From an uncultured Bacteroidales bacterium (GTDB lineage: Bacteria; Bacteroidota; Bacteroidia; Bacteroidales; UBA10428), in contig CAWAHF010000004.1 of the NCBI GenBank assembly GCA_963781805.1, positions 1,774,219-1,838,218 of the forward strand: a DNA stretch of 64,000 nt, in the 5' to 3' direction. A program made the translations under genes and the position numbers. This document shows, in pieces, positions 26,783 to 38,217 of the stretch. The notes under the pieces are model-generated. The model was not told the origin of the DNA. It saw only the letters and a list, made by a program, of their open reading frames with translations, and ran no database searches. The stretch's first letter is position 1. Each line of letters opens with the position of its first letter.

Positions 26783-27037
26783 ATGCTAACGACTACAATT
26801 TCAGATTTTAGAAAAGACATTAAAAGCTATTTAGATAGGGTTACTCAAAACTTTGAAACACTTATTATAAATAGAGGCAAGGATAATGGAGTTGTTGTAA
26901 TTTCATTATCTGAATATAATTCTTTATGCGCAACGCAACATGAGTTATCTTCAAAGGCTAATGAGAAACGGTTAGATTCTGCAATTGAAAAATTAAAAAA
27001 TGGTTCATCTTTTTCAAAAGAATTAATTGAAGAATGA
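26783..27037 (+). CDS. yefM: Phd/YefM antitoxin
   Basis: ISDFRKDIKSYLDRV...LIINRGKD...VVISLSEYNSL; 4-bp overlap with the toxin. Confidence 0.9.
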   Translation: MLTTTISDFRKDIKSYLDRVTQNFETLIINRGKDNGVVVISLSEYNSLCATQHELSSKANEKRLDSAIEKLKNGSSFSKELIEE

Positions 27038-27291
27038 AATATACATTTGTAGATGAATCTTGGGACGACTATTTGTATTGGCAGAAAACCGATAGACAAA
27101 TGGTTAAAAGAATAAATGAACTACTTAAAGATATTTCCCGTAATCCATTTTCCGGAATTGGAAAACCTGAACCTTTAAAATATAAATACAAAGGTTTTTG
27201 GTCAAGGCGAATAAATGAAGAACACAGGTTAATTTATCAATATAGAGAAGGTGAAATTCTAATAGCAAAATGTAGATTTCATTATGATTAA
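27034..27291 (+). CDS. yoeB: Txe/YoeB toxin
   Basis: WDDYLYWQ, GIGKPEPLK, WSRRINEEHRLIY, CRFHY. Confidence 0.95.
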   Translation: MKYTFVDESWDDYLYWQKTDRQMVKRINELLKDISRNPFSGIGKPEPLKYKYKGFWSRRINEEHRLIYQYREGEILIAKCRFHYD

Positions 27292-30365: not shown

Positions 30366-30869
30366 ATGAAATACAAACGATTAAAAATGTGTGTGTTTTT
30401 ACTGTCAGGTTTAAGCCTTGCAGTATTGCAGGCACAAGAAGCTATCCCCGCTTCAGGTGGAGACGCTGCCGGTAACGGAGGCTCAGTGAGTTATTCCGTC
30501 GGACAGATGGTATATACTACCCACTCAGGAACAACAGGAACATTAGCCCAGGGGGTGCAACAGGGCTATGAAATTACGGTTGAAACAGGTATTGAAAAAG
30601 CTGAAGGAATTAGCCTTACTGTTTCGGTGTATCCTAATCCAACGGCCGATTATCTTACGTTGAAAGTAAGGAATTATACGAATGAAGAGCTGATTTATCA
30701 GCTTTACGACATAAACGGAAAGCTTCTGGAAAGTAAAAAACTTACTGAAAAAGAAACAAGCATTTCGATGGGTAATCTTTTGCCCGCATCCTATTTTCTG
30801 AAAGTTGTACAGCTGAAGCATGCTTCGTCTCAACAAGAAATAAAGACATTTAAAATCATTAAAAATTAA
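30366..30869 (+). CDS. Small T9SS type A-sorted protein
   Basis: Signal peptide, SGGDAAGNGGSVSYSVGQ...QGVQQ, then CTD VYPNPT...YDINGKLL...YFLKV...FKIIKN. Confidence 0.88.
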   Translation: MKYKRLKMCVFLLSGLSLAVLQAQEAIPASGGDAAGNGGSVSYSVGQMVYTTHSGTTGTLAQGVQQGYEITVETGIEKAEGISLTVSVYPNPTADYLTLKVRNYTNEELIYQLYDINGKLLESKKLTEKETSISMGNLLPASYFLKVVQLKHASSQQEIKTFKIIKN

Positions 30870-30907
30870 TGAGACAGTATTTTTGAAAAAAATACGTAGT
30901 CGAATTA

Positions 30908-30956
30908 ATCCCGATAGCGCAACTTGTCCCGCACTGAAAGTCGGGAGCGTATCGGA
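30908..30956. repeat. REP-like palindrome interrupted by a second hairpin
   Basis: ATCCCGATAGC [GCAACTTGTCCCGCACTGAAAGTCGGGAGCG] TATCGGA. Confidence 0.5.
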
Positions 30957-30989
30957 AACAAAAAGTATTAATAATCAATAAAATATAAT

Positions 30990-33809
30990 ATGAAAAAATT
31001 ATTTACAATTTTAGCTGCAGTATTGTTAACCGCAGCAGGATGGGCCCAAAGCCCGGGGAAAATGAGTTATCAGGCAGTAGTAAGAGATGCAAGTGATAAT
31101 CTGATACCAAGTACAACAGTGGGAATGCAAATTAGCATACTGCAAGGCTCAGCAAGTGGAACAGCAGTTTATATCGAAACACAAACTCCAACCACCAATG
31201 CCAATGGTTTACTGAGTTTAGAAATAGGAACAGGAACTACCAGTGATGATTTTAGTAGTATCGATTGGTCGGTAGGTCCCTATTTCATTAAAACCGAAAT
31301 GGACCCAACAGGCGGAACAAATTACAATATTACAGGTACAAGTCAATTATTAAGTGTGCCTTATGCCTTGCACGCCAAAACAGCAGAAATAGTTACAGGT
31401 ACAATTACCGAAACTGACCCAACTTACACTGCAAGTGAAGCAGCCAATATCACAATCTATGATATTACTAATTTGGGTAACTTGTCCGGCGCCAACACCG
31501 GCGACCAGGATTTAAGTTCTTTTGCAGTACAAACTGCATTAGAAGATACCGCGTCAGCTATCAGATCAGCTCTATCCAATGTCAGCGGGTCTATTAGTAT
31601 TGAAACAGATCCTGCTTTTGGAGCAAGCGACGCAGCCAGTATTACTGCAGGGGATATTACAAAATTAGGTAACCTATCGGGCTTGAACACCGGCGATCAA
31701 GATATTTCAGGAATTGCCACCAACGCAAATGCTATTTCTACCATTCAAGGGGAAAAGACAAATCAAGATGCAGCTATTGCAGCTAATACAGCAAAAACAG
31801 GATATACCGAAGCCCTGGTATCGGCAAATACTGCCGTGGCATCCAACACAGCAAAAACAGGAATATCTGCACAACAAGCAGGTGATATCACTGCAAATAA
31901 TGCTAAAACTGGTTATACAGAAGCTTTGGTATCAGCAAATGCAGATGTTGTTGCAAATACAGCAAAAACAGGAATTACAACTGGACAGGCAAATGAAATT
32001 ACAGCCAATACTGCGAAGGTTAGCTACCCTGCTGCTGATGCAACAAAACTTGCAGCAATTACAGGCGCCAATACAGGCGATCAGGATATTTCCGGCATAG
32101 CAACCAATGGTTCATCAATTACAACTCTTCAAACAGAGCAAACCACGCAGAATACTGCTATTGCGTTGAATACAGCAAAAACAGGAATATCTGCACAACA
32201 AGCAGGTGATATCACTGCAAATAATGCTAAAACTGGTTATACAGAAGCTTTAGTGTCAGCAAATGCGGATGTTGTTGCAAATACAGCAAAAACAGGAATT
32301 ACAACTACACAGGCAAGTGCTATTATAAGCAATACAGACGACATTGAAACCAATGCTTTTGCAATTTTAGATGAAGTTGCCCGCGCCACAGCAACCGAAG
32401 GAATAACTGTAGATGATATAGCAATACTCGAAGTGGGACAAGTTTCACAGGATCAAGCTATTGCTTTAAACTCTATAAAAACAGATATTAATTCAGACGG
32501 CATTACAGTCAATACTGTCACAATTTTAAATGAAGTTGCCCGCGCCACAGCAGCCGAAGGAGTGACTGCAGATGATATAGCAATACTCGAAGCAGGCCAA
32601 GTCTCACAGGATCAAGCTATTGGTTTAAACTCTGTAAAAACAGATATTAATTCAGCCGGCATTGAAACCAATGCTGTCACAATTTTAAATGAAGTTGCCC
32701 GCGCCACAGCAGCCGAAGGAGTAATTGCAGATGATATACTTATACTCAGAGATGTGCATATCACTCAAGAAACAGCTATTGCATTAAATACTGCAAAAAC
32801 AGGCATTACAACCGCACAAGCAAATGAAATTACTGCCAGTACTGGCAAAGACACCACAGGCATTTACCATGCTAATAGAGTAGCACTTGATTTGGTTTCA
32901 GGCACAAACACCGGCGACCAGGATTTAAGTTCTTTTGCAGTACAAACTGCATTAGAAGATACCGCGTCAGCCATCAGATCAGCGATTCCCGATGTCAGCG
33001 GGTTTTTAACTTCTGAAACCGACCCTGTGTATGGTTTATCGATAGCTGCAGGCATAACAGGAGCCGATACAACCAACTGGAACAATGATTTGGTAGATGA
33101 TGCTGATGCTGATACCACAAATGAAATACAAAATATCAATCAGGTTTTGATAAAAGGAAATGATGCAAATGGTAACAACCTTGTTAATACGGGGAAAATA
33201 GGTGTGGGAACGGCTTCACCTAATGCAGAATCATCCATGGAAATAGCAACTGCCCTTCCGGTTATTTTTCCTTCAATGACACAGTCAGAAGTTAACGCAA
33301 TTGCTACTCCTGTAGAGGGCATGGTTCAGTTTAATGCAGACGCTCATAAGTTGCAGGTGTATGCTATGCTCACCGACAATGCATCTGTTTTAAATGAGAT
33401 ATTCCTGAACAATAGTTCAGGTCCTTATAATTTTATACTGGATCAATCGATTACTTCTCCCATTGATGGACAAGTGGTTGCGATTGAAATAATGTATAAG
33501 GATGTTGATGGAGGGGAACCTTTCGTTGATTTTTTTGTAAATGGTGAATACCAAGGTATGCAGTTAATGCCTAGTTATACACAATTTACCTGGCATACAT
33601 TTACAATGTCAACGCCGGTTCAGGTAACTGCGGGTATGCCGTTTTATATTGAATTCTTCGGACCTGGAGTTGATTTTCATGAATTTGCGACGAATAGTAA
33701 TTATCCCGGTGGGTCAGGATGTTGTTTTGCTTCTGGCGACGATGATTTATTGTTCAGGGTTCATATTCAGCCTAACGCTGGTTCTTATGGATGGCAGAGT
33801 ATGCATTAG
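30990..33809 (+). CDS. Secreted fibre-like repeat protein (939 aa) without a T9SS CTD
   Basis: SPI signal; QSPGKMSYQAVVR...SVPYALHAKTA N-domain; NTGDQD, ANTAKTG and EVARATAAEG repeats; GKIGVGTASP; distinct C-terminal beta-rich domain. Confidence 0.75.
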   Translation: MKKLFTILAAVLLTAAGWAQSPGKMSYQAVVRDASDNLIPSTTVGMQISILQGSASGTAVYIETQTPTTNANGLLSLEIGTGTTSDDFSSIDWSVGPYFIKTEMDPTGGTNYNITGTSQLLSVPYALHAKTAEIVTGTITETDPTYTASEAANITIYDITNLGNLSGANTGDQDLSSFAVQTALEDTASAIRSALSNVSGSISIETDPAFGASDAASITAGDITKLGNLSGLNTGDQDISGIATNANAISTIQGEKTNQDAAIAANTAKTGYTEALVSANTAVASNTAKTGISAQQAGDITANNAKTGYTEALVSANADVVANTAKTGITTGQANEITANTAKVSYPAADATKLAAITGANTGDQDISGIATNGSSITTLQTEQTTQNTAIALNTAKTGISAQQAGDITANNAKTGYTEALVSANADVVANTAKTGITTTQASAIISNTDDIETNAFAILDEVARATATEGITVDDIAILEVGQVSQDQAIALNSIKTDINSDGITVNTVTILNEVARATAAEGVTADDIAILEAGQVSQDQAIGLNSVKTDINSAGIETNAVTILNEVARATAAEGVIADDILILRDVHITQETAIALNTAKTGITTAQANEITASTGKDTTGIYHANRVALDLVSGTNTGDQDLSSFAVQTALEDTASAIRSAIPDVSGFLTSETDPVYGLSIAAGITGADTTNWNNDLVDDADADTTNEIQNINQVLIKGNDANGNNLVNTGKIGVGTASPNAESSMEIATALPVIFPSMTQSEVNAIATPVEGMVQFNADAHKLQVYAMLTDNASVLNEIFLNNSSGPYNFILDQSITSPIDGQVVAIEIMYKDVDGGEPFVDFFVNGEYQGMQLMPSYTQFTWHTFTMSTPVQVTAGMPFYIEFFGPGVDFHEFATNSNYPGGSGCCFASGDDDLLFRVHIQPNAGSYGWQSMH

Positions 33810-33849: not shown

Positions 33850-33880
33850 AAGGGCCCTTCAGGAATGAAGGGCTCTTTTA
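33850..33880 (+). terminator. Intrinsic terminator after the fibre gene
   Basis: AAGGGCCCTTCA-GGAA-TGAAGGGCTCTT followed by T-rich sequence. Confidence 0.7.
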
Positions 33881-33959
33881 TATTTATAACAGCAAATCTC
33901 CCGGCTAAGCGAGGTCTGCAACTTCTATTCACCCAATCTGGTCCAAGATTATGAAAAAC

Positions 33960-34168
33960 AAAAAACTGGTTCAGGCTTAACGAAGTGTAGCTTGGACCTT
34001 TTTTGTTTTTGTGCTTACAGTCACCTGCCTTGTCAAAATTTGTAACTGCAACGCATTAAAGAGTTAAAAACCTTCTGCCCCCTCACATGGCGAGTCTGTG
34101 AGTTGTTCCTTTTCTGACGCTGGCATTTTGTCCGTGTCCTACCCTGCACATGTAAAGATTTATAACTT
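33960..34168. repeat. Dispersed non-coding repeat, copy 1
   Basis: 33960-34109 matches 37994-38143 with about 12 mismatches in 150 bp; 34142-34168 matches the second module at 38165 and 38931. Confidence 0.9.
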
Positions 34169-37890: not shown

Positions 37891-37993
37891 TTTCGGCTAT
37901 TACTTTGATAATGAACCCGAATTGAAATTGCTTCTAGACAATCGAAAACAATAGTTAGAAAATAGAAATTAAACGCCTGGCTGGCGCGGGCCC

Positions 37994-38217
37994 AAAAAAC
38001 TGGTTCAAGCTTAACGAAGTGTAGCTTGGACCTTTTTTGTTTTTGTGCTTATAGTCACCTGCCTTGTCAAAATATGTAATTGCAACGCATTAATGGGTTA
38101 AAAAACGTCCACCCCCTCACATGGCGAGTCTGCGACTTGTTCCCTGACTGGTGCGGATATTTTGCCTGCACAGGCACAGATTTATGACTCCTTTCCCTAC
38201 TGCCCTGCCCCTGCAAT
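37994..38217. repeat. Dispersed non-coding repeat, copy 2 (longest)
   Basis: 150-bp module shared with 33960; 53-bp module shared with 38931. Confidence 0.9.

Follow-up and report, generated by a model that had tools for sequence, protein, structure and literature searches.

An uncultured bacterium of the order Bacteroidales (UBA10428; assembly GCA_963781805.1, contig CAWAHF010000004.1) carries, within a 64,000-nucleotide stretch of its genome (positions 1,774,219 to 1,838,218; hereafter the window), two adjacent genes. One codes for a 167-aa protein with a C-terminal domain (CTD) of a type IX secretion system (T9SS), here called the partner, and the other for a 939-aa protein with the appearance of a fibre, here called the fibre. 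An initial annotation, made from the sequence alone, had interpreted them as a possible two-partner system, in which the small protein carries or anchors a trimeric, tail-fibre-like adhesin through the T9SS. Both open reading frames (ORFs) were found at exactly the positions it had given, on the plus strand and in the same frame (Table 1). Its description of the two products was confirmed: in the partner, a signal peptide is followed by a short conserved module and then by a type A CTD, and the fibre has a Sec signal and a fibre-like stalk with no CTD.

Table 1. Features of the partner-fibre locus (positions are those of the window)
Feature	Position	Strand	Content or basis
Partner gene, 167 aa	30366-30869	+	Signal peptide, residues 1-23; module, residues 24-87; T9SS type A CTD, residues 88-167
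Partner module	30435-30626	+	Residues 24-87, about 64 aa; alignments of close and diverged sets
Partner type A T9SS C-terminal sorting domain	30627-30866	+	PF18962, residues 88-155; TIGR04183, residues 88-166
Stable 50-nt hairpin in the spacer	30906-30955	+	Folding; minimum free energy -25.7 kcal/mol, z -3.25
CTD-less fibre gene, 939 aa	30990-33809	+	ORF; putative member of a chimeric fibre family like the mosaic adhesive trimers (MAT)
Conserved fibre N-terminal domain, beta-sandwich	31047-31409	+	Residues 20-140; KMSYQAVVRD...SVPYALHAKTAE
Repetitive stalk	31410-33086	+	ETDP...NLSGxNTGDQD units, NTAKTG units and 53-aa units; tandem and direct repeats
C-terminal region, putative tip	33087-33806	+	About 240 residues, no recognised family
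Terminator-like hairpin and T-run	33850-33877	+	Closes the two-gene unit

The N-terminus of the partner was read by eye as a signal peptide of n-h-c organisation, which ends in LQA before the residues QE, and the AlphaFold2 model has a helix within it, at residues 4-17. The module that follows is rich in glycine and threonine and contains GGDAAGNGGSVSYSVGQMVYTT...QGVQQGYEI. Alignments gave the module consensus GGxAxGxGGSxSYSVGQVVYTTxTGTxGSVAQGVQQPYEI and, across the module subfamilies, the core motif [ST][IVL]G[EQ]-x(11-14)-[ST][QE]G[FVL]QQ[PSA]. The CTD was recognised by Por_Secre_tail (PF18962; 43.5 bits, E = 4e-11, curated cut-off 27) and by the type A sorting domain profile TIGR04183 (33.7 bits, curated cut-off 23), and the genome to which the window belongs also encodes SprA (TIGR04189, 2603 bits) and PorU (NF033707, 1307 bits). 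With its CTD above the cut-offs, its Sec signal peptide, and the translocon and the sortase encoded in the same genome, the partner is by sequence criteria a type A cargo of the T9SS. More than 3451 close homologues of the partner were found, nearly all of them of about 162 aa, with about 60% identity and with a CTD. A profile of the module alone matched 4325 cluster representatives at E <= 1e-3 among the 1.84 billion searched, and almost all of its best 150 matches were proteins of 159-175 aa, in which the module occupies residues of about 22-90. The architecture of the partner family is, as judged from these matches, fixed. In the AlphaFold2 model of the partner (85 sequences), the predicted local distance difference test (pLDDT) was 80-96 for the CTD and just 50-68 for the module. 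This low confidence in spite of strong conservation fits a segment that folds upon a partner.

The fibre begins with the signal peptide MKKLFTILAAVLLTAAGWA, which is followed by QSP and has no cysteine or lipobox, so that the fibre is not a lipoprotein. Searches of the fibre sequence gave no CTD and no other Pfam match at E <= 1. The N-terminal domain was modelled with AlphaFold2 as part of a pseudo-fusion, in which the partner, the natural 40-residue spacer (with the stops read as glycine) and fibre residues 1-160 were joined and a mixed paired and block alignment was used. In this model the domain was beta-rich with a pLDDT of 77-90; a Foldseek search of the model against PDB and BFVD returned generic Ig and FN3 sandwiches only, and sequence searches of PDB gave no useful match. 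The stalk contains internal repeats of 159 nt (three copies), 72 nt (six), 185 nt (two), 137 nt (two) and 51 nt (four). The C-terminal region has no relative in Pfam, in the PDB sequences or in the phage records searched, and tblastn with residues 701-939 against its own genome found only the sequence itself.

The first approximately 140 residues of the fibre have more than 5265 homologues with 60-81% identity, and the best 120 of them are 68-81% identical across this region. Their C-termini are unrelated to each other and include Fib_succ_major, DUF1566, Peptidase_S74, YadA head, LamG, collagen and other modules. The conserved SYQAVVR N-terminal domain with variable C-termini, which the initial annotation had described, is thus found in thousands of proteins. 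Fib_succ_major is the commonest tip type among these fibres, and it appears in published lists of the domains that diversity-generating retroelements target in microbiomes (PMC4159848, PMC5758913), which fits a role of the tip in ligand binding. Among the four fibres encoded in the genome of the window, one has a Fib_succ_major-like tip and two have C1q/TNF-like tips (by eye), while that of the window is unclassified. The fibre family is probably trimeric, since homologues have the modules of obligate trimers, namely collagen, the YadA head and the S74 chaperone. In the claim of a trimeric, tail-fibre-like adhesin, the trimer is made probable by the modules of the homologues, and the likeness to tail fibres is one of architecture only, with no phage matches. 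The same architecture and the S74, collagen and YadA-type modules could suggest that the pair is a remnant of a prophage or a tailocin, consisting of a phage tail fibre and an accessory gene. However, neither the N-terminal domain nor the stalk and the tip (residues 141-939) had a tblastn match in 50,697 phage records, matches in PHROGs were marginal only, and both proteins have Sec signals. Around the pair lie genes for a P-type ATPase and a phosphoesterase as well as toxin-antitoxin genes, and phage genes are absent nearby. This gene context and the lack of phage matches effectively rule out a phage origin.

To describe the association of the two genes, we retrieved 80 genome loci with the fibre N-terminal domain, 77 of which had enough upstream DNA for the test. 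The partner was directly upstream on the same strand in 73 of the 77 loci, with a gap of mostly 4-15 nt. In a phylum-wide sample of 401 evenly sampled genomes of Bacteroidota (in the GTDB sense), a narrow profile of the module gave 24 matches in 18 genomes, and all 24 were directly upstream of a match to the fibre N-terminal domain on the same strand. This adjacency is far beyond chance, and the recurrence of the pair in Bacteroidota proposed in the initial annotation is borne out by both counts, the close homologues of the SYQAVVR domain being almost always adjacent to a partner gene. The fibre N-terminal domain was present in 81 of the 401 genomes; these outnumber the genomes with the partner because the partners of diverged subfamilies escape the narrow profile. 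Directly upstream of 50 of the 78 inspected fibre genes missed with this profile is a gene for a protein of 148-253 aa, in which a signal peptide precedes a short module that follows the same pattern and a Por_Secre_tail CTD. When a broad module profile was applied to 18 genomes whose fibres appeared to be orphans, the module was found in 14 of them, and 27 of the 29 matches of this profile had a fibre gene on the same strand no more than 2.5 kb away, many of the matches being directly downstream of it. All four fibre genes of the genome of the window are paired. These results from gene order indicate that the two genes almost certainly form a real functional unit conserved across Bacteroidota.

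In some loci a single partner gene heads an array of two to four fibre genes, whose N-terminal domains are 82-100% identical and whose remaining parts are only 27-75% identical. Since the fibres of an array share the N-terminal domain and differ elsewhere, the partner goes with the constant base of the fibre and not with its tip. The mirror-tree Mantel correlation with the fibre N-terminal domain was 0.80 for the module and 0.72 for the CTD; these values do not discriminate, because adjacent genes share their history. A 305-aa ORF upstream of the fibres in one family was rejected as a partner, as it is a housekeeping dGTPase-like gene. At another locus (L085:367-2973, genome G363, contig C7), the fibre is preceded by an 869-aa protein whose end was read by eye as a type B (CHU_C-like) CTD, and the true module partner of this fibre is directly downstream (G363:C7:313870). 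In G275:C17, an apparent Rosetta-stone fusion of the module with the fibre resolved into two distinct ORFs. In the same contig (G275:C17:32500-38500, L169, minus strand) a 692-aa ORF has the fibre N-terminal domain at residues 536-653, near its C-terminus, which may be explained by inversion of the usual architecture, by a start-codon artefact or by truncation of a fibre.

The module is always placed right after the signal peptide, and the part behind it varies. The commonest form is the module with a type A CTD. In one family, proteins of 167-172 aa have the module with a type B CTD (CHU_C, 83-99 bits), and the type B CTD is also found behind the module in proteins of 281-404 aa with SprB repeats. 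In proteins of 571-721 aa, an insert of about 450-570 aa lies between the module and a type A CTD. Large module proteins were found at L016:2138-3922, L067:1170-2963, L169 (G275:C17) and L170 (G191:C8), and in Winogradskyella and Psychroserpens they precede fibre genes or arrays. There is also a rare third type of C-terminal end, dockerin-like and with no Pfam match, in module proteins of 288-303 aa with the repeat DFNADGAITVADFNFY...DANLDKQVTVADFNLYQ (L160, G167:C1:43900-45300; L167, G191:C2; L168, G167:C1:2249900-2251300). Because two different T9SS signals have been recruited to one and the same module, the link of the partner to the T9SS is robust and the role of the module is tied to the T9SS, and this swap of the CTD on a constant module is the strongest evidence that we obtained for such a tie.

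We propose that the partner links the fibre to the T9SS by binding the base of the fibre, for export, for anchoring or for both, and we give this reading a probability of roughly 0.55. The pair would then be a two-component surface fibre. The fibre, which would reach the periplasm via Sec and lacks a signal for its own export across the outer membrane, would be a trimeric adhesin whose N-terminal base is constant, whose stalk is repetitive and whose C-terminal tip can be exchanged. The partner would act as an adaptor in trans; after removal of its signal peptide, the module of about 64 residues would bind the fibre base, and the CTD would take the complex through the SprA translocon, be replaced by a cell-surface anchor, or both. 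A type A CTD would be cleaved by PorU with attachment to lipopolysaccharide, and a type B CTD would lead to an anchor of the PorP/SprF type. In either case the N-terminal end of the fibre would be fixed, and its binding tip would face outward. Because the T9SS attaches its cargo via the C-terminus of the cargo, a fibre bearing the CTD could not adopt this tip-outward topology. A CTD of its own would also be unsuited to many of the fibres, because the self-cleaving S74 tip chaperone would cut it off. A separate CTD protein that grips the N-terminal base would resolve this conflict of topology. Physical binding, co-export, anchoring and stoichiometry are all steps that we infer.

In a more specific and tentative form of this proposal, which we regard as possible but would not favour by itself, the partner would work as the signal-bearing member of a hitchhiker complex: the module would clamp the base of the assembled fibre trimer in the periplasm, the CTD would drive the hetero-complex through SprA, and the sortase would leave a partner-tethered complex at the surface. 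Export of this kind is known from the Tat (twin-arginine translocation) pathway, where signal-less HybC travels with HybO, and from the EsxA/EsxB pairs of the type VII secretion system. The likeness lies in the proposed logic, in which one subunit of a pre-assembled complex bears the export signal, and not in family membership; the machines and the membrane are different.

The partner could instead be an anchor only. It would then be exported by the T9SS and fixed on the surface as a docking peg, and the fibre would cross the outer membrane by another route, in vesicles or after lysis, before it attaches to the peg. Adjacency and tracking of the N-terminal domain would be the same as under the adaptor proposal, and a small type A cargo does remain on the surface in the case of Porphyromonas gingivalis PorA (PGN_0123), a protein of 246 aa described as the "smallest verified type A cargo", which ends bound to A-LPS (anionic lipopolysaccharide; PMC12152298). 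No other route is visible in the present case, however. Secretins were searched for in the genome of the window and none was found, and the fibre sequence has neither a lipobox nor an autotransporter or beta-barrel domain, which leaves the T9SS as the sole known dedicated route across the outer membrane here. A peg would also leave unexplained why the fibre has a Sec signal without an outer-membrane export signal. We therefore consider an anchor-only role rather unlikely, although it agrees with everything else that was observed.

Several points weigh against an adaptor that links the fibre to the T9SS. The T9SS is thought to export only proteins bearing their own CTD, and we know of no demonstration that a CTD-less protein is exported through it by association; literature searches on piggyback export and CTD-less cargo of the T9SS gave no demonstrated case either. 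In the pseudo-fusion model, the pLDDT of the module was 35-41, below that of the module alone, and there was no support for 1:1 docking; note that this test was a weak one, as the model was monomeric, kept the signal peptides and came without predicted aligned error, and the true binding partner is probably a trimer. About one quarter of the sampled diverged fibre genes had no partner within reach, and four fibre-bearing genomes (G071, G215, G107 and G039) had no match to the module even with the broad profile. Conversely, the large module protein at G191:C8 has no fibre gene nearby, and the module proteins of G167 and G191 with the dockerin-like end have no recognisable CTD. Finally, the MAT fibres of Bdellovibrio are displayed on the surface without a T9SS (PMC10769870), which also speaks for the anchor-only explanation. 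On balance, the claim that the small protein carries or anchors the fibre via the T9SS gains from the conserved unit, the tracking of the N-terminal domain and the occurrence of both type A and type B CTDs, and its docking component found no support in the pseudo-fusion.

Two further functions of the partner were considered. Small genes beside the fibre genes of phages often encode chaperones, and the partner might likewise be a periplasmic chaperone or assembly factor, whose module transiently caps the N-terminal domain against premature aggregation or to nucleate trimerisation and whose CTD serves only to dispose of the chaperone. The low AlphaFold2 confidence of the module when modelled alone and the short spacers, which suggest coupled translation, would be in line with such a function. 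However, the chaperones of phage fibres have the variable C-terminal tip as their target, but it is the constant N-terminal domain that the partner tracks, and the two T9SS signals on one module together with the surface-type inserts with SprB repeats point to a role at the surface; a chaperone is thus improbable. Still less probable is a cargo or signal independent of the fibre, in which case the small protein would be a regulatory ligand like PorA, or else a secreted peptide, co-expressed with the fibre without binding it and, for example, coupling fibre expression to the status of the T9SS. The precedent is again PorA of P. gingivalis, since this small type A cargo signals to PorY via its CTD (PMC12152298). 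The activity of PorA resides in its CTD, whereas in the family studied here the N-terminal module is conserved and follows the lineage and the CTD is interchangeable. Moreover, the copy number of the partner follows that of the fibre loci, and four pairs in one genome would be odd for a regulator.

Among known systems, the fibre is closest in architecture to the MAT fibres of Bdellovibrio bacteriovorus. The profile NF053851 (Bdello_MAT_N) matched fibre residues 11-85 with 39.4 bits (E = 5e-10; cut-off 60) at profile positions 3-78 of 162, and all four fibres of the genome matched positions 2-80 with 18-44 bits. As these scores are below the cut-off for membership, we describe the fibre as MAT-like by architecture and by a weak sequence similarity. 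The initial annotation had missed this possible relationship. Common features are the Sec signal, the invariant N-terminal base, the long repetitive stalk of trimer type, the several paralogues per genome and the exchangeable tips (S74, TNF/C1q-like and lectin-like). On the other hand, the match covers just the first half of the profile, the phylum is another one, the Bacteroidota hosts are not known predators, and a dedicated T9SS-tagged partner gene accompanies the fibres in Bacteroidota, while a T9SS is absent from Bdellovibrio. The N-terminal domain of the MAT fibres "would presumably tightly bind a surface element", which was still unidentified (Caulton et al. 2024, PMC10769870). The idea that the Bdellovibrio MAT N-terminal domain has its missing second half in the partner module was rejected, as NF053851 had no match on the partner.

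The partner resembles type A cargo such as PorA and RgpB in the succession of signal peptide, passenger and type A CTD and in the presence of SprA and PorU in the genome. It differs in that the passenger has only about 64 residues, the whole protein of 160-170 aa being smaller than PorA, in that it is linked to the gene of a CTD-less fibre, and in that the CTD is of type B in some lineages. SprB and SprF of Flavobacterium johnsoniae and the anchors of the PorP family offer another comparison: there, too, a T9SS-dependent filament or adhesin needs the protein of an adjacent gene for its display, and in some variants of the partner SprB repeats accompany a type B CTD of the CHU_C kind. The arrangement is reversed, however, since SprB itself bears the CTD and its neighbour is an outer-membrane anchor, whereas here the adhesin is CTD-less and the neighbour bears the CTD. 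The term two-partner system is acceptable as an analogy only. As in two-partner secretion (type Vb; TpsA/TpsB), two adjacent genes serve to display a large filamentous adhesin, but nothing found here resembles that system: Pfam and NCBIfam searches gave no Omp85/POTRA transporter and no TPS (two-partner secretion) domain, and the partner, made up of the module and a CTD modelled as a beta-sandwich, is a small soluble T9SS cargo.

The spacer between the two genes of the window has 120 nt (30870-30989), compared with the 4-15 nt that prevail at other loci, and contains a stable hairpin (Table 1). Two further copies of this hairpin were found in the genome, at C4:974908-974957 (96% identity) and C4:4199842-4199882 (90% identity), so that it is probably a dispersed small repeat and no part of the system. 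It may be an insertion similar to repetitive extragenic palindromic (REP) elements, with a possible attenuating effect on read-through into the fibre gene. A direct repeat of 172 nt with 88% identity is present at 33959-34130 and 37993-38164, the first copy being about 150 nt past the stop codon of the fibre gene. This repeat is dispersed, and the pair lies, together with the toxin-antitoxin genes at 26783-27291, at the edge of a variable, cassette-like region.

Full-text searches of the literature gave no description of the partner-fibre pair. If the hitchhiker form of the proposal is true, the pair would be the first case of hitchhiker export described for the T9SS, and it would reveal what type of surface element grips the N-terminal domain of MAT fibres. 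The pair is also a candidate answer to the question, raised with the MAT fibres, of what holds the invariant N-terminal domain at the surface. The putative adaptor family comprises thousands of sequence clusters, and an adaptor so widespread would show how proteins whose C-terminus has to stay free can be displayed by the T9SS. Since the adaptor is small, with a module of about 64 residues and a CTD, it could also serve Bacteroidota research as a compact surface-display tool. The many exchangeable tips, whether lectin-like, C1q-like or S74-capped, suggest that environmental and gut Bacteroidota possess a large and unexplored range of adhesins.

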